Shown: one piece after another, positions 1-10,845 of the stretch
How the letters are laid out: the number at the start of each line of letters is the position of its first letter
Position numbering within the stretch: the stretch's first letter is position 1
DNA from: a virus
Lineage: Duplodnaviria; Heunggongvirae; Uroviricota; Caudoviricetes
Reading direction: 5' to 3' (one strand)
Length of the DNA stretch: 10,845 nt
Virus record (IMG/VR): IMGVR_UViG_2531839579_000019
The notes under the pieces: model-generated
Database searches by the model: none
What the model was told of the DNA's origin: nothing
Seen by the model: only the letters and a program-made list of their open reading frames with translations
Program-made: the position numbers and the translations under genes

Positions 1-1
1 A

Positions 2-208
2 TTTTTATTAGCATCAGAAATTTCAGACAACTATGACAATCTTCCTGAGAAAGTATCCAAGCTTGTTGAAAACTATAAAGGATTTAGATTTAACTCAGAA
101 GCAGAGACAATCAGAAATTTATTACGCTATATAGTCAACACACGGAAATTAAGTGATTTCTCACAAGCACTTTTGAAGATTGAAGAGATAATAAATAATT
201 ACAAATAA
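2..208 (+). CDS. 3' end of an unknown AT-rich cargo gene (5'-truncated by the window edge); C-terminal 68 aa ...LLKIEEIINNYK, stop TAA at 206-208
   Basis: Frame open from the window start to TAA 206-208. Base composition is strongly AT-rich (about 30% GC by my count), unlike the GC-rich P4-like core next to it. Ends 18 bp before the cos sequence. No recognisable motif in the visible tail. Confidence 0.5.
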   Translation, partial: FLLASEISDNYDNLPEKVSKLVENYKGFRFNSEAETIRNLLRYIVNTRKLSDFSQALLKIEEIINNYK

Positions 209-226
209 TTTCGTTCCTAGCGCGCA

Positions 227-245
227 GTGCTTTCCCCGCCTCGCC
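227..245. other. cos: cos site: 19-nt P2/P4-type cohesive-end sequence
   Basis: Sequence gtgctttccccgcctcgcc is the exact reverse complement of GGCGAGGCGGGGAAAGCAC, which I recall as the P2/186/P4 cohesive end. It lies just beyond the psu stop, as in P4. Confidence 0.7.
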
Positions 246-348
246 CGCCCGCTTTGCGGGGCGGTTTTAATGCAGTTGCACTGACACGCTCAGACCGCGC
301 CGGGAATGGCGCGGTTTGCAGAAAATGAGGCAGGGAAACGCATGCAAA

Positions 349-379
349 GCCATGCACCTTATCGATGCATGGCTTTTTT
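349..379. terminator. Rho-independent terminator hairpin between convergent genes
   Basis: Perfect 8-bp stem gccatgca (349-356) / tgcatggc (366-373) with a 9-nt loop, followed by TTTTTT (374-379) on the plus strand. On the minus strand it follows the psu stop but has only a short T tract. Confidence 0.6.
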
Positions 380-409
380 CAGTAAAAACGGGCGGATTTT
401 CGGGGAATT

Positions 410-982
410 TTACACTGACTGACGTGATGCCAGTTGCGCACTTTTACGCGAAAAAATCATGTTCTGCGCAGGGGTGAATTTTTCACGGCTGTCATCCACC
501 GAAGCCACGTCAGGCCTGAATCCGATGGTCGTTAAAATGTCGCTATCCTGTGCGGAATAATTAATTTTTTCACCCTTCGCAAGCCAGGACAGAAGGGCTT
601 CACGCAGGGCATCTGTGGCACGCTGTATGGCACAGTTTCGGGCAATGGCCGTCAGCTCACTGTAGCCCATCAGCTCCGGTGCCAGTGCCGCCGCCAGTGC
701 TGTGCCGTGCTGCTGCATAAAATCATTCAGCCGGTCGCGGATGCTGATGTGCTGAACGGCTTCATGCGAACGAATATAACGACCGGCGGCCTGATTCACC
801 TGCCATTTTCTGACTTCGATAATATTGCGTAATTCGTCCAGGCGACTGACGTTTCTGCCTTCTCCTGACAGAAGCCGCAGATATTCCTGTTCGGCCGCTG
901 CCAGCTCATTTTTGCGTTGCAGCCATGCTGCTTTGTTATTCTGACAGGTGTCAAAGGCCTGCTGTAAGGCTGTGCTTTCCAT
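410..982 (-). CDS. psu: Psu, polarity suppression protein (190 aa)
   Basis: Intact 190-aa ORF starting MESTALQQAFDTCQNNKAAW; the length and N-terminus match my recollection of P4 Psu. It is the last gene of a sid-delta-psu operon and ends next to cos. Confidence 0.85.
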   Translation of the reverse strand: MESTALQQAFDTCQNNKAAWLQRKNELAAAEQEYLRLLSGEGRNVSRLDELRNIIEVRKWQVNQAAGRYIRSHEAVQHISIRDRLNDFMQQHGTALAAALAPELMGYSELTAIARNCAIQRATDALREALLSWLAKGEKINYSAQDSDILTTIGFRPDVASVDDSREKFTPAQNMIFSRKSAQLASRQSV

Positions 983-1055
983 CGTTATCTCTTTCTCATC
1001 ATGCTGAAGAATAAAAATACGGTGTGCGGCGACGGCCGGTGTTAACCGGCAGCCC

Positions 1056-1556
1056 TCATTCCAGACGCAGCGAATATGATTGTGTTTTTAACCGTACTGG
1101 CGGCAGTTCCTGTTTTTCATGCAGGCGTTCTGCCAGTTCGTCCGGCGTGACCGGGCGGACAATGAAACGGTTGATGGTCTGAAGCGTTTTAAACACCAGA
1201 CCACAGCCCGGATCCGTGCACACATAAAAACGCTCGGTGACTTCCTGAGACAGACGCCGCGATGTTCTTGACAGTGCAAGGCCTTTACATCTCCGACAAC
1301 AATATCCGGTAACAAGCATTCTTTTCGGGCGTTTCATACTGCCGGAGGCTGACGTCAGTGAATCGCGGTATCTCTGTTTGCCTGAAATGTATTCCATTCC
1401 TGAATCTTTACTGTCAGAGAAAAAGCTTTCACTCGCTTCAAATGTCGCAGAGCAATAAATATTCCGGCACTGTGCAATCATTATCTTGGTGCCATCGTCC
1501 ATGAAATGTGCGCGACGGGTGTGAGCAACATGTCCACACGACGGGCAGTAAATCAT
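1056..1556 (-). CDS. delta: Delta, Ogr/Delta-family zinc-finger late-gene activator (166 aa)
   Basis: Intact 166-aa ORF with the Ogr-type motif C-P-x-C-x-H...QC-x-N-x-x-CSATF (MIYCPSCGHVAHTRR...AQCRNIYCSATF) and a second Cys-rich half (CCRRC...CTDPGCG), consistent with P4 Delta as a fused Ogr-like dimer. Its ATG overlaps the sid stop (ATGA). Confidence 0.85.
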   Translation of the reverse strand: MIYCPSCGHVAHTRRAHFMDDGTKIMIAQCRNIYCSATFEASESFFSDSKDSGMEYISGKQRYRDSLTSASGSMKRPKRMLVTGYCCRRCKGLALSRTSRRLSQEVTERFYVCTDPGCGLVFKTLQTINRFIVRPVTPDELAERLHEKQELPPVRLKTQSYSLRLE

Positions 1557-2278
1557 GACAGCAGTCCTCTGGCCTTAAGCTCTGCTCCCTGCTGGTCTAT
1601 TTTGTCCTGCCACACCTTGCGCTGTGCCGGTGTGCCTGCCACCTCATAATCCATGTGCGGGAGTGTTGCCGCTGACAGTCCGGTCAGCCGGAGAACCGGC
1701 TCGCCGGTGAGGCTGATTTGCATCTGTTTAATTTTCTGTTCCAGCGATGATTTCACCTGCTGCATGACAGCCTTTTCCGGTGCGACGTAGCCCTGATGGC
1801 CGGTGGTGTTGGCGAGCGGATTTTCCTGTACCAGAATGCTCAGATGCATTGCCCGGACAAGCGCCTCACAGGTTTCATTCAGGGCGTGTTCCAGCTCATG
1901 CTCTGCATACAGACTCAGAGGTGATGATGTGCCTTCCGGTAGGCGGTGGCCGTGCTGTCACACGCCCCTTTCAGGCGTTCCGTTCAAATTCAGCACCACG
2001 GCCAGATTGTCATATTCCTGTACCAGCTCCCGGCGTGCCACGCGCTCAATGTGGCGCTGTTTCAGCTCGTCGCTCAGGACACCACCGGCTGCACGAAAGG
2101 CGTGCGCCAGTCTCAGCGTCTTTCCGTCGGCCTGCGCCAGCGCATTTTTTTCCTGCTCTGCCCGTTCAATGGCCGTACGGTCTCATCCATCAGGCGGGCG
2201 TTCTCAAGATGGCGGCTCTGGCTTTTCCAGTTGTGCCAGTGCGGGTTGCAGATATTCAGGGATGGTGTTGTCAGACAT
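1553..2278 (-). pseudogene. sid: sid (capsid size determination) homolog, interrupted by frameshifts
   Basis: ATG at 2278 is preceded by AGGAG, but the frame stops after 24 codons (TGA at plus 2204-2206). Protein-like sequence continues in alternating frames, with at least four frame changes between about 1914 and 2224 and a second in-frame TGA. The C-terminal 98 aa (1553-1849) is in the starting frame. The 726-nt span is close to the 244-codon P4 sid. Confidence 0.7.
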
Positions 2279-2312
2279 TTTCCGGCTCCTCGTCACTTCA
2301 GGTTAAGAAAAT

Positions 2313-2368
2313 TGTGACGTACACCGGACAACAACACGACGCATTGCAGATGTGCCAGCCCTGACACA
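2313..2368 (-). promoter_or_regulatory. Psid-type late promoter region with two Delta/Ogr-type TGT-N12-ACA dyads
   Basis: Perfect TGT-N12-ACA at 2313-2330 and 2351-2368, centred 43 and 81 bp upstream of the sid ATG and 38 bp apart. This matches the P2/P4 late-promoter arrangement with activator sites near -55 and about -18. Confidence 0.6.
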
Positions 2369-2447
2369 GGAGACTCATCCTCAGACCGGCAAGCCAGGAA
2401 AAGGTCGCAGGAAAAACCGGCTTACTGTTTGTTTTTTTATATTTTAC

Positions 2448-2551
2448 TGTTCACCTCTGTTCACCTTAAGAAAAAAGATAAGTAATACAGTAAGTTAAAG
2501 GGTGAACAATCGCAGTAATGACTGTTCACCGTCTGTTCACCACTGTTCACC
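2448..2551. repeat. ori-like iteron cluster (TGTTCACC octamers)
   Basis: Five direct copies of TGTTCACC (2448, 2458, 2523, 2534, 2544) and one inverted copy (GGTGAACA at 2501), in the divergent region between sid and the rightward operon. The same octamer recurs in the crr-like repeats about 4.8 kb away. Confidence 0.7.
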
Positions 2552-2710
2552 CGTTGATGGGCTTTTTGTGCTGTTTACTACTGTTTGTTTTTATTAATTC
2601 GCCTGAATGAATAAGAAGAAACGATTTGTATTTCACTATAAAAATTACGAATTGCTTTAAGTGGCTTTAAATGACTATATGGTGGAGATGAACAAAAAAC
2701 ACACAGCCAT

Positions 2711-2728
2711 TGTAAGGCTGCCGGAACA
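2711..2728 (+). promoter_or_regulatory. Candidate Delta-binding dyad of a PLL-type late promoter upstream of vis
   Basis: TGT-aaggctgccgga-ACA (TGT-N12-ACA) about 110 bp upstream of the vis ATG. A second, imperfect CTG-N12-ACA lies about 35 bp downstream. Single perfect dyad only, so weak. Confidence 0.35.
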
Positions 2729-2830
2729 AATCCCCCCTGTTGCGTCTGCTGAAAATATTCACAAAATAAAGCGCTACCCGAAGCCGGACGGACTTATCCG
2801 GTGCTGTATGGACATTAACGAGGTAGCCCG

Positions 2831-3097
2831 ATGCAAGCTGTTTTTTCTTCCCCGTCTCCCGCCCCTGTGACGCCACTGATGCCGCTGCCGGACATCACGC
2901 AGGAGCGTTTTTTACGTCTGCCGGAAGTGATGCACCTGTGCGGCCTGTCACGCTCGACCATCTACGAACTCATCCGTAAGGGGGAATTTCCGCCGCAGGT
3001 GAGTCTTGGCGGTAAAAATGTGGCCTGGCTGCACTCTGAAGTCACCGCATGGATGGCCGGACGCATTGCCGGACGCAAACGGGGGTACGACGCATGA
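2831..3097 (+). CDS. vis: Vis/orf88, AlpA-family helix-turn-helix regulator (88 aa)
   Basis: Intact 88-aa ORF with GAGG 6 nt upstream. Contains the AlpA-type HTH signature RLPEV...[14 protein letters not shown]. It is the first gene of the rightward operon, as for P4 orf88. Confidence 0.75.
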
Positions 3098-3132
3098 TGA
3101 TGCCCGCTCTGCAAAAACTCCCTTTTTCTGGC

Positions 3133-3162
3133 TTGCCTTTTTCCGGCATTTGCGGATATAGT
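3133..3162 (+). promoter_or_regulatory. Candidate sigma70 promoter (PLE-like) at the head of the immunity/early leader
   Basis: TTGCCT (3133-3138), 18-bp spacer, TATAGT (3157-3162), immediately downstream of vis where P4 places PLE. Hexamer match only. Confidence 0.4.
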
Positions 3163-3225
3163 TTTTCCGCTGCCGCAAAATCGGCAGCCGGGCGTAGGAA
3201 CCCGTGTAACTCGTCGGCGACATAT

Positions 3226-3247
3226 GACGCGCCATGCGTCTTTTTTT
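3226..3247 (+). terminator. Short hairpin plus T7 tract in the early leader (attenuator/timm-like terminator)
   Basis: Stem gacgc (3226-3230) / gcgtc (3236-3240), 5-nt loop, then TTTTTTT (3241-3247). Sits about 75 nt downstream of the predicted PLE start, where a termination-based immunity mechanism would act. Confidence 0.45.
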
Positions 3248-3675
3248 GTGTCGCAATCAACGCCACAGAGCACCAGATTATGGTGTGGCGTGTGGTTTGC
3301 CGTGCAGGTATGATCCTGTTCGCAATCGCATGTTATGCCACTGAGTCAATGGTAGCTCAGGCGGGGCAGCCTCCGGGCTGGCCGGTTTCCGATAACGCCG
3401 GTATTCTCACCCCCGTCTGGGCTATCGCCATCGAGCGTGAGAACTCCGGCGATAGCGTCATTTACGCTGTTATCGGAGACTGCCTTATGGCTACGACCCT
3501 TACCCCCTCACACCCTGAATTTGTCTTTGTGTTTGCGGCTGTCCGTCGCGCAGACCGTCATCCCCGTATCTGATGCTTCGCACCGTCGCCGGTGATGAAC
3601 GCAGCGCCCGCCGTTCCCTTGTCCGTGACTATGTGCTCTCCCTTGCTGCCCGTCTGCCGGTGGTGGAGGTGTCCC

Positions 3676-3963
3676 GTGCGTAATAAAAAAGCCCCTCAGA
3701 CCGTCTCAGCACGTCATGACGCCCGTGAACACCTCAGCATTGAGGCTTACCATAAGCTCAACCGCGCCAGCGCCGTATCCCAGTTTGTTGGGGGTGATTT
3801 GATTCACCGTGAACTCTCCGGCCTGCATCAGCTCTACATTCCGCATATTTTCAGCTACCTGAATGAAGATATTGATTTTGTGCTGAATGAGCTGAAAGCC
3901 AAAGGCCTGTGCCGCGATTTTCTCGCCCAGCAGAAAGACCGGGGAGACAGGACGCATGTTTGA
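3676..3963 (+). CDS. Epsilon-like small protein (95 aa from GTG 3676; frame is open from 3592)
   Basis: GTG at 3676 is preceded by GGAGG (3665-3669) and gives 95 aa. The stop overlaps the orf151 start. Start choice is uncertain; the alternative at 3592 has no Shine-Dalgarno sequence. Confidence 0.55.
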
Positions 3964-4411
3964 TTTTCCCCAGCCCGGTGAGATTTACCGTTCTGCCGGT
4001 TTTCCCGATGTGGCCGTGGTCGGCATTCTGGAAGACGGTATTCCGTGGGAAATGCCGTACCGCTGCCCGGACATTGTCTGGAACCCGTACCGCCGTAAAT
4101 TCAGTATCCTTGTGCGTATCCTCGCTGACGGGCGCACCACAGACATCCCGCTGGGGCGTTTTCTGCGGGAATTTACCTGTGACCGTCCTGACCTGTTTAA
4201 ACGCAGCCCCGTAAACCGGCATGCGGTACTGAAAGAAATGGCCGGAGACCCGGAATTACAGAAATGGCGGGAGAAATATCTGGATATTTACCCGCAGGAC
4301 ACTGTTCCGGTCAGCCGGGCAGCACCGGTGGCGCGGGAATGGCGGGAAATTCCCCGCACGGAGCCTGACCCGGAAACCACCCCGGATAACAGTTACCGCA
4401 ATTATCTGTAA
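3956..4411 (+). CDS. orf151-like protein (151 aa)
   Basis: Intact 151-aa ORF with GGAG upstream, overlapping the epsilon stop. Size and position match P4 orf151 between epsilon and alpha. Confidence 0.75.
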   Translation: MFDFPQPGEIYRSAGFPDVAVVGILEDGIPWEMPYRCPDIVWNPYRRKFSILVRILADGRTTDIPLGRFLREFTCDRPDLFKRSPVNRHAVLKEMAGDPELQKWREKYLDIYPQDTVPVSRAAPVAREWREIPRTEPDPETTPDNSYRNYL

Positions 4412-4546
4412 TTAAAAAACGACACCCGAAAAATTAAATGTGCGTATTCGCGCAGGGATACGCACGTCTTCAGGAGACGCAGATATGCCTTATCAGTTAA
4501 TGCAACCGGCACGGAATGCAGTCATCTGTCACAGGGAGGAAAGCAA

Positions 4547-4866
4547 ATGAAAACACCCTTACCGCCCGTCTTACGCGCTGCCCTTTACCGTCGCGCTGTC
4601 GCCTGTGCCTGGCTGACCGTGTGCGAACGTCAGCACCGCTACCCGCATCTCACCCTTGATCACTGGAGGCGGCCATCGCCGCTGAGCTGGAAGGCTTTTA
4701 TCTGCGCCAGCACGGTGAGGAAAAAGGGCGTCAGATAGCCTGTGCCCTGCTGGAAGATTTAATGGAATCCGGCCCCCTGAAGGCCGCGCCGTCGCTGTCC
4801 TTTCTCGGGCTGGTTGTGATGGATGAACTCTGTGCCCGTCACATAAAAGCGCCGGTACTGCACTGA
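4547..4866 (+). pseudogene. orf106-like small ORF upstream of alpha, with one apparent 1-nt frameshift
   Basis: ATG 4547 is preceded by GGGAGGA. The frame reads 63 aa, then protein-like sequence continues in another frame from about 4663 ([33 protein letters not shown]...) to TGA 4864-4866. Restoring one base near 4655-4665 would give a continuous 106-codon ORF. Confidence 0.5.
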
Positions 4867-4880
4867 AGGAGAACAACACC

Positions 4881-7210
4881 ATGAAAATGAACGTAACCGC
4901 CACCGTCAGCCATGCGCTCGGCCACTGGCCGCGTATTCTCCCGGCGCTGGGGATTCAGGTGCTGAAAAACCGTCATCAGCCCTGTCCGGTCTGTGGCGGG
5001 AGTGACCGCTTCCGTTTTGATGACAGGGAGGGGCGCGGCACCTGGTACTGCAATCAGTGTGGTGCCGGTGACGGCCTGAAACTGGTTGAAAAGGTGTTTG
5101 GTGTTTCCCCGTCCGACGCGGCCACAAAGGTGGCTGCCGTGACCGGCAGCCTGCCCCCGACTGACCCGGCAGTGACGGCTGCCGCCGGTGCTGAAACAGA
5201 CGCTGCCCGGAAGAACGCCGCCGCACTGGCACAAACCCTGATGGCGAAAACCCGTCCCGGAACCGGTAACGCCTACCTGACCCGCAAGGGCTTTCCCGGC
5301 CGGGAATGCCGGATGCTGACCGGCACACACAGAGCCGGTGGCGTGAGCTGGCGCCCGGTGACCTTGTGGTGCCACTGTATGACGACAGCGGCGAACTGGT
5401 TAACCTTCAGTTAATCAGTGCTGACGGCCGTAAGCGCACCCTGAAAGGCGGACAGGTCAGGGGCACCTGTCACACCCTTGAAGGACAGAATCAGGCCGGA
5501 AAACGTCTGTGGATAGCGGAGGGATACGCGACCGCACTTACCGTCATCACCTGACCGGTGAAACGGTGATGGTGGCGCTTTCTTCCGTGAACCTCCTTTC
5601 TCTGGCCAGCCTTGCCCGGCAGAAGCATCCGGCCTGTCAGATTGTCCTTGCCGCAGACCGTGACCTCAGCGGTGACGGCCAGAAAAAAGCCGCCGCAGCC
5701 GCAGATGCGTGTGAGGGCGTTGTTGCCCTGCCGCCGGTCTTCGGTGACTGGAATGATGCCTTCACGCAGTACGGCGGGGAGGCCACCCGTAAGGCCATTT
5801 ACGATGCCATCCGGCCACCGGCTGAAAGCCCGTTCGACACCATGAGCGAAGCAGAGTTTTCCGCCATGAGTACCAGCGAAAAGGCCATGCGTATCTATGA
5901 GCATTACGGCGAGGCGCTCGCGGTCGATGCCAACGGCCAGCTTCTGTCCCGTTATGAAAATGGTGTCTGGAAGGTGCTGCCGCCACAGGACTTTGCCCGG
6001 GATGTGGCCGGGCTGTTTCAGCGTCTGCGCGCGCCGTTCTCCTCCGGGAAGGTGGCCTCCGTGGTGGACACCCTGAAGCTGATTATTCCGCAGCAGGAAG
6101 CCCCCTCCCGCCGCCTGATTGGCTTTCGTAACGGCGTGCTCGACACGCAGAACGGCACGTTCCACCCGCACAGTCCGTCACACTGGATGCGCACCCTGTG
6201 CGATGTGGATTTCACCCCGCCGGTGGACGGTGAAACGCTGGAACCCACGCCCCCGCGTTCTGGGCTGGCTTGACCGTGCCGCCGGTGGCCGTGCGGAAAA
6301 ACGCGACGTGATTCTGGCCGCACTGTTTATGGTGCTGGCAAACCGCTACGACTGGCAGCTCTTTCTGGAGGTGACCGGTCCCGGCGGCAGCGGCAAAAGT
6401 ATCATGGCCGAAATAGCCACCCTGCTGGCCGGGGAGGATAACGCCACGTCGGCCACCATTGAGACGCTGGAATCCCCGCGTGAACGTGCCGCGTTAACTG
6501 GCTTCTCACTGATACGCCTGCCGGACCAGGAAAAATGGAGCGGCGACGGTGCCGGACTCAAGGCCATCACCGGCGGCGATGCGGTGTCCGTGGACCCGAA
6601 ATACCGGGATGCGTACTCCACGCATATCCCGGCGGTGATTCTGGCCGTGAACAATAACCCGATGCGCTTCACCGACCGCAGCGGCGGCGTGTCACGCCGG
6701 CGGGTGATTATTCACTTCCCGGAACAGATAGCCCCGCAGGAGCGCGACCCGCAGCTTAAGGACAAAATCACCCGCGAGCTGGCGGTCATCGTGCGTCACC
6801 TGATGCAGAAGTTCAGCGACCCGATGCTCGCCCGGTCACTGCTTCAGTCCCAGCAGAACTCAGACGAGGCGCTGAACATCAAACGGGATGCCGACCCGAC
6901 GTTTGATTTTATCGGCTATCTGGAAACCCTGCCGCAGACCAGCGGCATGTATATGGGGAACGCCAGTATCATCCCGCGTAATTACCGTAAATACCTCTAT
7001 CACGCCTATCTGGCCTACATGGAGGCAAACGGCTACCGGAATGTACTCAGTCTGAAAATGTTCGGGCTGGGGCTGCCGGTGATGCTGAAGGAATACGGAC
7101 TGAATTACGAGAAGCGCCATACCAAACAGGGGATACAGACCAACCTGACGCTGAAAGAGGAAAGCTACGGCGACTGGCTGCCAAAATGTGACGACCCTGC
7201 AACAGCCTGA
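4881..7210 (+). pseudogene. alpha: Alpha-type primase/helicase, split into four frame segments by three frameshifts
   Basis: AAGGAGA 8 nt upstream of ATG 4881. Zinc-binding primase N-terminus (CPVCGG...RF...WYCNQCG), a Toprim-like segment (5306-5554), and a helicase part with Walker A GPGGSGKS (6119-7210). Frame changes fall within 5306-5414, 5509-5554 and 6119-6273. Total span 2330 nt, close to the 777-codon P4 alpha. Confidence 0.8.
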
Positions 7211-7226
7211 CCCTCATAACTCATCT

Positions 7227-7251
7227 GACCGGCATCTGCCGGTCTTTTTTT
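7227..7251 (+). terminator. Rho-independent terminator after alpha
   Basis: Stem gaccggc (7227-7233) / gccggtc (7238-7244), loop atct, then TTTTTTT (7245-7251), 17 nt after the alpha stop. Confidence 0.75.
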
Positions 7252-7267
7252 ATCCCTGAATCCCCCG

Positions 7268-7566
7268 AAGGTGAACAATCCACTGTTCACCCTTCACCGT
7301 ATATTCACCCGTTATCACACTGAAATTAAAAGAGAAAAACGAAAGGTGAACAGTGTGAACAATCAAATCAAAAAAAACTTTTTTCTTCCTGAGTGATTTC
7401 AGTGCGGAGGATTAATCACCGGTATGAGTCACACCGGCAGAATGCCGGAGGTGAAGAATCGAATGTTCACCCTTCACCCATTATTCACCACCTATCACTC
7501 TGAAATAAAAGGAGAAAACAGAAAGGTGAACAGTGTGAACAGTTCTTTCGAAAAAAAATTTTTTAT
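7268..7566. repeat. crr-like cis replication region: two ~117-bp direct repeats carrying the iterons
   Basis: Unit 1 (about 7268-7384) and unit 2 (about 7448-7566) are imperfect direct repeats with a 180-bp period. Each carries several TGTTCACC/GGTGAACA motifs and ends in an A-run/T-run. Matches the two-repeat crr downstream of alpha in P4. Confidence 0.7.
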
Positions 7567-7757
7567 GTGGATAAAAGATGCACTGGTTTGGATCCGAGCT
7601 ACGGATCCAAACTTACTGATTAAAAATGATTTAACTTTCCGATTTATTGATGGGCTGAAAATAGATTGGTCAGAAAAACAGTGGGGGCACAAAAGGGGGC
7701 ATATTTCATTGTTGTGTTTTATTATTTGTTTTTTATCATTAACTTATTTTGATGTTT

Positions 7758-7776
7758 GAGTCCGGCCTTCGCACCA
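7758..7776 (+). other. attP: att core resembling the 3' end of tRNA-Leu (leuX), with no tRNA body upstream
   Basis: gagtccggccttcgcacca matches the leuX 3' end GAGTCCGGCCTTCGGCACCA as I recall it, except for one missing G. The sequence upstream (7700-7757) is AT-rich and not tRNA-like. Lies 190 bp upstream of int. Confidence 0.55.
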
Positions 7777-7792
7777 TATAAAGTTTTTTTCA

Positions 7793-7876
7793 AGTCTACT
7801 CACGTCTACTTTAGTCCATAAAAACAGTAAATTAAGCAGGTTTTTTGCTTTTCTTAGTCTGTCCACGTCTACTTAC
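7793..7876. promoter_or_regulatory. Direct repeats between att core and int (candidate integrase arm-type sites / int promoter region)
   Basis: agtctactcacgtctacttt (7793-7812) and agtctgtccacgtctactta (7857-7876) match at 17 of 20 positions, 64 bp apart. Function is inferred from position only. Confidence 0.35.
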
Positions 7877-7965
7877 TTCTATCCACATATACCAACGAAT
7901 GATGGTATAACTGGTGGTATCTTCGGTTCGATTGATTTTGATACCAACAGCGGAGGTATCAACTG

Positions 7966-9216
7966 ATGGCACTTACTGATATCAAAGTTAGGACTACCAA
8001 GCCCTCCGACAAACCTTTCAAACTTACAGATGGGCAGGGTATGCACCTGCTGATCAACCCCAATGGTTCAAAATACTGGCGACTCCAATACCGTTTCGAT
8101 GGCAAACAGAAAGTTTTAGCATTGGGAGTTTATCCAATAGTCTCTCTTGGTGAAGCTCGCAGGAAACGAGATGAGGCCAAAAAGTTGGTATCTGATGGTA
8201 TCGATCCTTCCGAGAAGAAAAAAGCAGACAAGATCGAGCAGAGCGAAGCTCTGACATTCGAGGCTGTCGCAAGGGACTGGCATACTGCCTGTAAAAGGAA
8301 ATGGTCTGATTCCCACAGCGAGAGAGTTCTAAAAAGCATGGAAGATGGTCTCTTTACTGCTATTGGTAAAAGAAAAATATCCGAACTTAATACCAGAGAT
8401 CTTCTTGCCCCTATCAAGGCTGTTGAAGCTTCCGGGCGATTGGAAGTTGCTTCCCGATTACAGCAAAGAACAACGGCGGTAATGAGATATGCTGTCCAGA
8501 ACGGGCTGATAGATTACAACCCTGCTCAGGAGATGGCAGGAGCTATTGCGGTAGCTAAAAGAGTCCACAGGCCAGCTTTGCCATTCGAACGATTCTCAGA
8601 ACTTTTAGAACGAATTGATAGTTTCAAGGGTAGAAAACTCACGAAGTTAGCCGTGAAACTCACATTGCTCATTTTCATTCGTTCAAGTGAACTTAGGTTT
8701 GCTCGTTGGTCAGAGATAGATTTCGACAATGCCATGTGGACTATCCCTGGGGAACGTGAGCCATTGCCAGGGGTCAAACATTCTCATCGAGGCTCAAAAA
8801 TGAAGACCCCACACCTCGTGCCGTTAAGTCGCCAGGCTATAGAACTCCTCAAAGCTATCAAAGAAATCAGCGGTGAATGTGAACTTGTGTTCATTGGTGA
8901 TCATGATTTTAGAAAGCCTATGAGTGAAAACACGGTAAACAAGGCTTTAAGGTCTATGGGCTACGACACTACGGTTGAAGTATGTGGACATGGTTTTCGT
9001 GCGATGGCATGTAGTGCGTTGATCGAATCGGGAAAATGGTCAAGGGATGCTGTTGAACGGCAGATGAGCCACCAAGAGCGAAACTCCGTTCGTGCTGCCT
9101 ACATTCATAAAGCAGAACACCTTGATGAAAGAAGGCTTATGTTGCAGTGGTGGGCTGATTACCTTAATGCCTTGAAAGATAGGTTTATCAGTCCCTTTGA
9201 TTTTACAACAAAGTAG
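7966..9216 (+). CDS. int: P4-type tyrosine integrase (416 aa)
   Basis: GGAGG 9 nt upstream of ATG 7966. P4-family N-terminus (MALTDIKVRTTKP...YWRLQYRF...), catalytic-region H-x-x-R (HGFRAMA) and a tyrosine in RAAYIHKAEHLDERR. Intact. GC is visibly lower than the psu-alpha core. Confidence 0.9.
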   Translation: MALTDIKVRTTKPSDKPFKLTDGQGMHLLINPNGSKYWRLQYRFDGKQKVLALGVYPIVSLGEARRKRDEAKKLVSDGIDPSEKKKADKIEQSEALTFEAVARDWHTACKRKWSDSHSERVLKSMEDGLFTAIGKRKISELNTRDLLAPIKAVEASGRLEVASRLQQRTTAVMRYAVQNGLIDYNPAQEMAGAIAVAKRVHRPALPFERFSELLERIDSFKGRKLTKLAVKLTLLIFIRSSELRFARWSEIDFDNAMWTIPGEREPLPGVKHSHRGSKMKTPHLVPLSRQAIELLKAIKEISGECELVFIGDHDFRKPMSENTVNKALRSMGYDTTVEVCGHGFRAMACSALIESGKWSRDAVERQMSHQERNSVRAAYIHKAEHLDERRLMLQWWADYLNALKDRFISPFDFTTK

Positions 9217-9303
9217 CTTGATCAACGATTAACTATCCACTGGCATAGCCGTGTGATATGATTACAATGGCTATATTTTTAATTTAAATTTAATAGGTAA
9301 AAA

Positions 9304-10443
9304 ATGTCCACAATTAACCCCGCAATTTTTTCTTTTTTCTCTGGTTCAGGATTTCTTGATCTTGGATTTGAAAAAAATGGTTATGAAGTGGTTTTCGTGA
9401 ATGAATACCATGCTCCGTTTATGGATGCATATAAACATTCGAGGAAAAAATTAAATATAGCACCACCTCGTTTTGGGTATGCAGAGTGCAGTATTGAAGA
9501 TGTAGAACATGAAAAAATTAAGTCTTCTATGCTTCAACTTAAAAATGAGGGGCGATTGACTGGATTTATTGGTGGTCCACCATGCCCGGATTTCTCTGTA
9601 GCGGGTAAAAATAAAGGTCGAGATGGTGAAAACGGTCGGCTTTCACAAAGCTATATTGATATCATTCTTGAAATGAAACCAGATTTCTTTCTTTTTGAGA
9701 ATGTTAAAGGTCTATACCGTACCAGTAAACATAGGGAATTTTTTGACCATTTAAAAACTCAATTAGAATCGGTTGGTTATTGTTTGCATGAAAAACTAAT
9801 AAATTCTATTGAATATGGTGCTCCTCAAGATAGGCAACGAATCATATTGATTGGTTTCCTTGATGAAAAATATGCAAGCCAATTCAATTGGGGGCAAAGA
9901 GTCTACCCTGAAAGAACTGCATTTGAATATAAATGGCCGACGACAAACCAATTTTCAGAAAACACTTCTGTTATAAAACCAAAGGGTATCCCAGAAGAGT
10001 TAACAGTAGAGCATTGGTTCAAGAAAAACCAGGTTGATAATCATCCAAATGCAAAGCATGTATTCGCGGCAAGAGCAGGGCTTGCGAGGTTTTTGACTGT
10101 CGAAGAAGGGGATGATAGTAAAAAATCCTATAAAAGGTTGCATAGATGGAGATTTTCACCAACTGCTGCTTACGGTAATAATGAGGTACATTTACATCCT
10201 TATAAACCAAGAAGAATTACTGTTGCCGAAGCATTAGCAATTCAGTCTTTACCAAAAGAATTTGAATTACCTGCTTATATGACTCTGTCTAATATGTTTA
10301 AAACTGTCGGTAACGGTGTACCCTACTTAGCAGCGGCCGGTATTGCCAAATCTATTATAGAGCATTTAGGAATCGAATATGAGAGTAACTGCGGCGAACT
10401 TAGCACAGGCGATTGCCAATCTACCAAGAAACACGCAGTTTAA
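9304..10443 (+). CDS. DNA (cytosine-5)-methyltransferase (379 aa), intact
   Basis: Ordered C5-methyltransferase motifs: motif I-like FSGSGF, motif IV GGPPCPDFSVAG, motif VI FENVKGL, motif VIII QDRQR, motif X TVGNGVP. AT-rich; first gene after int. Confidence 0.85.
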   Translation: MSTINPAIFSFFSGSGFLDLGFEKNGYEVVFVNEYHAPFMDAYKHSRKKLNIAPPRFGYAECSIEDVEHEKIKSSMLQLKNEGRLTGFIGGPPCPDFSVAGKNKGRDGENGRLSQSYIDIILEMKPDFFLFENVKGLYRTSKHREFFDHLKTQLESVGYCLHEKLINSIEYGAPQDRQRIILIGFLDEKYASQFNWGQRVYPERTAFEYKWPTTNQFSENTSVIKPKGIPEELTVEHWFKKNQVDNHPNAKHVFAARAGLARFLTVEEGDDSKKSYKRLHRWRFSPTAAYGNNEVHLHPYKPRRITVAEALAIQSLPKEFELPAYMTLSNMFKTVGNGVPYLAAAGIAKSIIEHLGIEYESNCGELSTGDCQSTKKHAV

Positions 10444-10453
10444 TTATTTAAAT

Positions 10454-10845
10454 GTGCGAAATTCGGGAAGAATCATTGTAACGAATGTTCAACTTCCCGA
10501 AGGCCCAATAGAATTCAAAAGATTCGATCCAAAAAAGGGTGAGACACTGCATAGTTCTAAATCGGAAAGCATCTCCACACAAATGATGTGGAGATTGGCT
10601 AATGCTTTACAGGAAGATGTCCCTGTCAATTTGGATCGTATTTTTGGTGCAAGCTATAATACACGTGCTGTTCTCGAAAGCCTTTTGGCCCATACTCCTG
10701 AGTTTTATTGGTGTAAGCTTGATCGCCTTGAGGTAATGAACACTCAGAAAAATATTAAAAAAGGTCACAAGCACCTTATTTATAGACCAAATGACCCACA
10801 TGAAAATGGTGTAGCAATAGAACATACTACTAATGTTATAATTTC
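10454..10845 (+). CDS. Unknown ORF immediately downstream of the methyltransferase (3'-truncated by the window edge); possible functional partner
   Basis: Frame open from 10442 to the window end, 130 codons visible. Candidate starts are GTG 10454 (10 nt after the methyltransferase stop) or ATG 10583; neither has a clear Shine-Dalgarno sequence. Same strand and composition as the methyltransferase. No diagnostic motif in the visible part. Confidence 0.45.
   Translation, partial: MRNSGRIIVTNVQLPEGPIEFKRFDPKKGETLHSSKSESISTQMMWRLANALQEDVPVNLDRIFGASYNTRAVLESLLAHTPEFYWCKLDRLEVMNTQKNIKKGHKHLIYRPNDPHENGVAIEHTTNVII

Follow-up and report, generated by a model that had tools for sequence, protein, structure and literature searches.

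The window analysed here, a stretch of 10,845 nucleotides, carries a satellite prophage of the P4 type and, beyond it, a different island. Neither the replication gene alpha nor the small gene orf106 upstream of it can be read there as a single open reading frame. This raises the question of whether the satellite has lost its ability to replicate or whether the deposited sequence is at fault. The earlier note on this DNA had offered both readings, a genuinely inactivated replication gene and systematic deletion errors. We compared the window with intact relatives, with the other drafts of the same sequencing project and with complete genomes carrying the same islands.

The window was found to be identical to the entire contig AQBU01000082.1 (10,845 bp) of draft genome GCA_000358575.2, from ETEC E. 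coli p0305293.11. A search for exact protein matches to the truncated alpha product of 177 aa led to a single contig, AQBU01000082.1, and a 48-mer spanning the deletions before 6242 and 6264 had no exact match in IMG/VR, the GTDB representative genomes or the JGI metagenomes. The identity of the NCBI contig and the window also ruled out stripped ambiguity codes as the cause of the missing bases. The P0305293 series comprises ETEC isolates from Bangladesh (2011), sequenced at the IGS GSCID, the centre of the same project. According to the project paper, multiple colonies per patient were sequenced with Illumina HiSeq2000 paired ends at more than 200x coverage and assembled with Celera Assembler; going by that paper, the same methods would apply to p0305293.11.

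The features of the window are listed in Table 1.

Table 1. Features of the window and the bases missing from them
Feature	Position	Strand	Remarks
SIR2-family gene, 3′ end (satellite cargo)	1-208	+	Left flank; that of the selC copy in genome 504237
P4-like core	218-7564		Bounded by the limits of homology to the leuX (X) and selC (Y) copies in complete genome 504237
psu	410-982	-	
delta	1056-1556	-	
sid (capsid size determination)	1553-2278	-	Nine single-base deletions
ori	2448-2551		Six TGTTCACC type-1 repeats
orf88, epsilon, orf151		+	In the order orf88, ASH/Icd-like gene, epsilon, orf151, orf106
Phage_ASH/Icd-like gene	3094-3683	+	One base missing before 3573
orf106 (DUF5375)	4547-4866	+	One base missing between 4658 and 4659
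alpha primase-helicase gene	4881-7210	+	One base missing before each of 5355, 5545, 6242 and 6264
crr region	7270-7532		Five exact TGTTCACC repeats
leuX-type att core (attR)	7758-7776	+	GAGTCCGGCCTTC-GCACCA
Integrase	7966-9216	+	Part of separate leuX island
DNA cytosine methyltransferase (Dcm-type)	9304-10443	+	Part of separate leuX island

Alignment of positions 4400-7300 with the closest intact relative, the prophage of E. coli strain 120899 (L001), revealed seven substitutions and five single-base deletions, one in orf106 and four in alpha. The same five deletions were obtained with the complete genomes L003 and L005, and likewise with each of the 57 distinct relatives that were aligned; among the 25 best matches, not one shared any of the five, each match having 2,906 bases for 2,901 bases of the query. 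At the DNA level, the orf106-alpha stretch shares 98.3% identity with P4 and 99.6% with strain 120899, and the alpha region was found in 1,157 of the 5,426 complete genomes of E. coli.

Restoring a single A before position 4659 gave an ORF106 of 106 aa that is 100% identical to that of P4 and matches PF17345 over its full length, in agreement with the earlier statement that this ORF needs one base; the base beside the deletion is an A/G polymorphism, 25:32 among the relatives. The alpha gene, which had been described as occupying four frame segments, is actually divided into five (4881-5354, 5355-5544, 5545-6241, 6242-6263 and 6264-7210), the fourth of which, only 22 nt long, had been overlooked. 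The indel count by alignment came to four single-base deletions in this gene. A single ORF of about 777 codons is absent from the deposited sequence and appears once the four bases are restored; the resulting 777-aa protein has no further lesion and differs from the alpha protein of strain 120899 by two residues, and from P4 alpha by seven or eight, depending on the allele restored at codon 159. The gene is recognisable from end to end, as the earlier note had claimed, with the Pfam domains Zn_Ribbon_Prim, Toprim_3, D5_N, DUF5906 and Pox_D5 in the repaired protein. The zinc-ribbon primase domain (PF08273) was located on residues 30-66 with an E value of 1.9e-18, and was detected on the 177-aa fragment as well; PF13362, PF08706, PF19263 and PF03288 (Toprim, then D5_N and the D5-type SF3 helicase) all scored above their cut-offs in the repaired protein, and the P-loop motif GPGGSGKS was seen in the translation.

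In P4, the alpha protein is a primase-helicase that binds the origin and drives replication of the element from ori and crr, and its action is tempered by orf106, the cnr gene of P4. The gene in the window lies in the same context, with orf106 upstream, crr downstream and an ori with TGTTCACC repeats. This octamer occurs 11 times in the window against 0.42 expected, and both cis elements for replication are present; the number of type-1 repeats in the window ori is the same as that annotated in the ori of P4 (six). The gene order of P4 is also that of the window, and P4 alpha has the same domain set as the repaired protein. However, orf106 and alpha are continuous in P4, whereas in the window, which lacks the five bases, neither gene is a single ORF; the cargo of P4 is cII-beta-gop and that of the window a SIR2-family gene; and the element in the window adjoins a second leuX island. 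Intact P4-like prophages of E. coli 98.5-99.6% identical to the window are found, for example, in strains 120899 (CP025916), 504237 (CP025862, with copies at leuX and selC) and 2016-17-550 (LR883965). They have continuous ORFs of 106 and 777 codons, and their flanks match those of the window.

The recurrence of single-base losses remarked on earlier was confirmed, five in the region from 4547 to 7210 and 15 across the contig: nine in sid, one in the Icd-like gene, one in orf106 and four in alpha. The most affected gene is sid, which lies outside the region treated in the earlier note and whose deletions, before 1919, 1981, 1986, 2102, 2113, 2121, 2177, 2212 and 2222, fall within 304 nt, eight of the nine at third codon positions. 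Repaired Sid is 244 aa long and one amino acid from P4 Sid, and exactly this protein is present on at least 1,000 contigs. The tenth deletion outside the orf106-alpha region, before 3573, is at a site that is a T/C polymorphism (11:11 among relatives), and its repair gave an Icd-like product of 196 aa.

All 15 deletions lie in the 7,043 nt core and none in the 3,802 nt flank (Poisson P = 3e-4), and the window from 7261 to 10845 (about 3.6 kb) is 100% identical to the complete genome of strain 504237. No insertion was reproducible against all relatives, and no private substitution was found in 4,293 aligned columns, as against 14 deletions that are absent from every relative outside the project. 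Thirteen of the 15 lie in runs that show polymorphism among the 57 relatives, against a background of 0.154, or about 15% (P = 2e-9); by inspection the number rises to 14 if the A/G site beside 4659 is included. The deletion before 6264 is at an invariant, non-homopolymer site. Seven of the deletions are in runs of two to four identical bases and the other eight lie outside any homopolymer, so that the homopolymer-linked, strand-biased read errors suspected earlier do not fit, and the deletions have the look of consensus errors in a collapsed multi-copy element. The spectrum of neutral decay, in which substitutions far outnumber indels, indels are of mixed size and sign and there is no tie to population polymorphism, was not observed.

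The truncated 63-aa ORF106 was also found on contigs of four more drafts of the project (L098-L101), under names that include p0305293.8 and p0305293.13; the strain names and the project paper suggest that the five drafts represent one clone. The four contigs have the same core as the window, each with a different subset of single-base deletions. In window coordinates, and over the conserved parts of the core, these stand at 1919, 1986, 4659, 5355, 5389, 5545 and 6264 in L098; at 4538, 4659 and 5545 in L099; at 3711, 4659, 5389, 5452, 5475, 5545, 6151, 6179, 6228, 6231, 6242, 6264 and 6415 in L100; and at 758, 1981, 2000, 3573, 3711, 4659, 5389, 5452, 5475, 5545 and 5690 in L101, with more small indels at 2600-2690, at 3460-3500 and downstream of alpha. 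The deletions at 4659 and 5545 are therefore common to all five drafts examined, and ten of the 12 extra sites in the sibling drafts are polymorphic among the relatives. L099 and L100 have an identical flank from L099 position 4496 to the end, and all of their 29 differences are at or before L099 position 4495, 27 of them within the stretch homologous to P4 and the final two immediately past it. Since the frameshifts vary between drafts whose flanks are identical, they do not behave as inherited mutations.

Three kinds of right flank were found on this one core: the leuX island in the window and L101, selC-setC in L099 and L100, and the pao genes in L098. The p0305293.11 clone therefore probably has at least three P4-like copies, which would be about 98-99% identical over roughly 7.3 kb and lie at leuX and selC and next to the pao genes. 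Strain 504237, whose complete genome has three sid-bearing copies, offers a comparison: the left flank of the window (1-217, with the SIR2-family gene) is that of its selC copy, and the right flank (7565-10845) that of its leuX copy, while the core alternates at fine scale between the leuX (X) and selC (Y) alleles. The contig is thus probably a collapsed consensus and possibly chimeric, as judged from these alignments; the combination of left and right flanks is the same in L101 and may be genuine. As a stand-in for the isolate, strain 504237 is related and not equivalent, given the mosaic, about 35 window sites that match neither X nor Y, and only five of the 15 deletions at sites where X and Y differ.

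In L098 (AQCD01000081.1, 346 kb), the locus from 1 to 20192 has yjgB-leuX-int-cII-beta-gop as left flank and LysR-paoD-paoC as right flank on either side of the core. Two distant loci have likely been joined wrongly in this draft.

These data suggest that the frameshifts arose as consensus errors in a 2013 draft assembly in which near-identical satellite copies were collapsed, and are not mutations, a reading to which we assign a probability of about 0.88. The deletions track sites that are polymorphic in the population, and since mutation cannot know such sites, this points to a consensus of mixed copies. The assembler would have merged reads of several copies into one core and attached arbitrary flanks to it; wherever a substitution separates the copies, the pair of alleles was probably set in adjacent, half-filled alignment columns, each of which would be outvoted by the gap, with the loss of one base from the consensus. 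In the true copies, orf106, alpha, sid and the Icd-like gene would most likely be intact, as they are in hundreds of relatives. Like the collapsed-repeat errors of other short-read drafts, those of the window are confined to the multi-copy element, are not reproduced between assemblies of the project and come with inconsistent flanks, and they fall at variable positions; unlike them, they are uniformly clean single-base deletions. No paper on this exact assembler behaviour was found in the literature.

For sid, a haplotype constructed to carry the alternative allele at each of the nine sites had no exact match among complete genomes, the best match being 99.0% identical over 390 nt, and the alternative alleles belong to no fewer than three haplotype classes. 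A simple 50:50 mixture of two copies was therefore not demonstrated for this gene, no single database haplotype having all the alternative alleles.

Several points run against an artefact: the presence of 4659 and 5545 in all five drafts, the invariant site at 6264, the deletion at 1981, which is shared with an IMG/VR contig, the lack of a database haplotype that accounts for sid, the small number of deletions at X-Y differences, and the flank combination common to the window and L101. The lesions at 4659 and 5545 might be real in at least one copy, which would then be a replication-dead satellite, the other deletions being assembly noise; we consider this unlikely, but if true, that copy would have been kept as a carrier of SIR2-family cargo beside a second leuX island. 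Somewhat less probable again is genuine pseudogenisation of the whole set, by which real single-base losses in alpha, orf106, sid and the Icd-like gene would have left an island unable to replicate but still carrying psu, delta and its defence cargo. The deletions do stand in the deposited record, two of them recur in five related drafts, and isolated frameshifts are known from other P4-like elements (orf106 of BvCmsA139A, and single gaps in L012, L036 and L072). Yet decay of this kind would have to produce 15 deletions and no private substitution, and to target them to polymorphic sites and third codon positions, which no mutational process known to us does; it would also have to leave the repaired genes free of other damage and to give different sets in drafts of one project, even in two with identical flanks.

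That all the reproducible indels are single-base deletions, nearly half of them in short runs of identical bases, would also be expected of ordinary read-level errors unrelated to copy number, such as homopolymer undercalls or errors from low coverage or poor quality. We hold this to be very improbable, as such errors are not expected from Illumina data at more than 200x, more than half of the deletions are outside homopolymers, and they are confined to the repeat core, where they coincide with polymorphic sites. Real heterogeneity among colonies, with P4-like copies recombining or mutating rapidly within the patient, would account for drafts that differ from each other only in the P4-like part and for the fine-scale switching of the consensus between X and Y alleles. 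Recombination, however, swaps alleles without losing single bases at variant sites, whereas all the reproducible indel differences are frame-breaking single-base deletions, and this is the explanation to which we give the least credence, hardly any at all.

Between the two readings offered at the outset, systematic deletion errors are thus favoured by the polymorphic sites, the lack of private substitutions and the disagreement between drafts, and the genuinely inactivated replication gene is not. The proposal of a non-replicating satellite is not supported, no evidence having been found that alpha is dead, and the frameshifts themselves hold no new biology. They do call for caution, as in drafts of this kind substitutions that distinguish paralogous mobile elements can end up as single-base deletions, and the replication, capsid-size and regulatory genes of satellites would then mimic pseudogenes. 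Any survey tallying degraded P4-like satellites, or reading frameshifts as evidence of domestication, would be misled by such contigs. Diagnostic signs are the occurrence of deletions only, with no private substitutions; their position at sites variable among relatives; and disagreement between sibling assemblies.

The att core in the window, GAGTCCGGCCTTC-GCACCA, is shorter by a single G than the 3′ end of leuX and the attP of P4. This absence, pointed out in the earlier note, is correct, but it does not belong to the pattern of losses: the complete genome of strain 504237 has the att core exactly as in the window, and the loss of the G is therefore genuine and independent of the frameshifts. 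The core is a genuine junction variant between two islands. The integrase and methyltransferase genes downstream of it are found directly beside leuX in most genomes, and from this usual place they are part of a separate leuX island and not satellite genes, contrary to the suggestion that the satellite keeps its int. In both the window and strain 504237 the P4-like satellite is inserted between leuX and this island, so that two islands stand in tandem at a single tRNA site. Besides the integrase and the methyltransferase, the region 7966-10843 includes the start of an NmeDI_C-like ORF, and the island usually adjoins leuX and yjgB.

The cargo slot of P4-like satellites is a known anti-phage hotspot. 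SIR2-family genes were found in it as two alleles (L005, L096 and L001), and other copies carry a RexA-like gene or the cII-beta-gop genes of P4. An independent frameshift of orf106, four codons downstream of that in the window and likewise giving a 63-aa product, is present in the unrelated strain BvCmsA139A (protein P0032, GCJ14136.1). The only other IMG/VR contig with the deletion at 1981 in sid is IMGVR_UViG_2537561687_000016 (L073/L097), at about position 5740; in other respects it is identical to the window over 1500-2400, a span that includes sid, and has none of its other deletions. Just after the alpha stop codon, at 7213-7221, there is a 9-bp indel polymorphism; the nine bases are present in the window and in about half of the relatives, and missing from P4 and the others.
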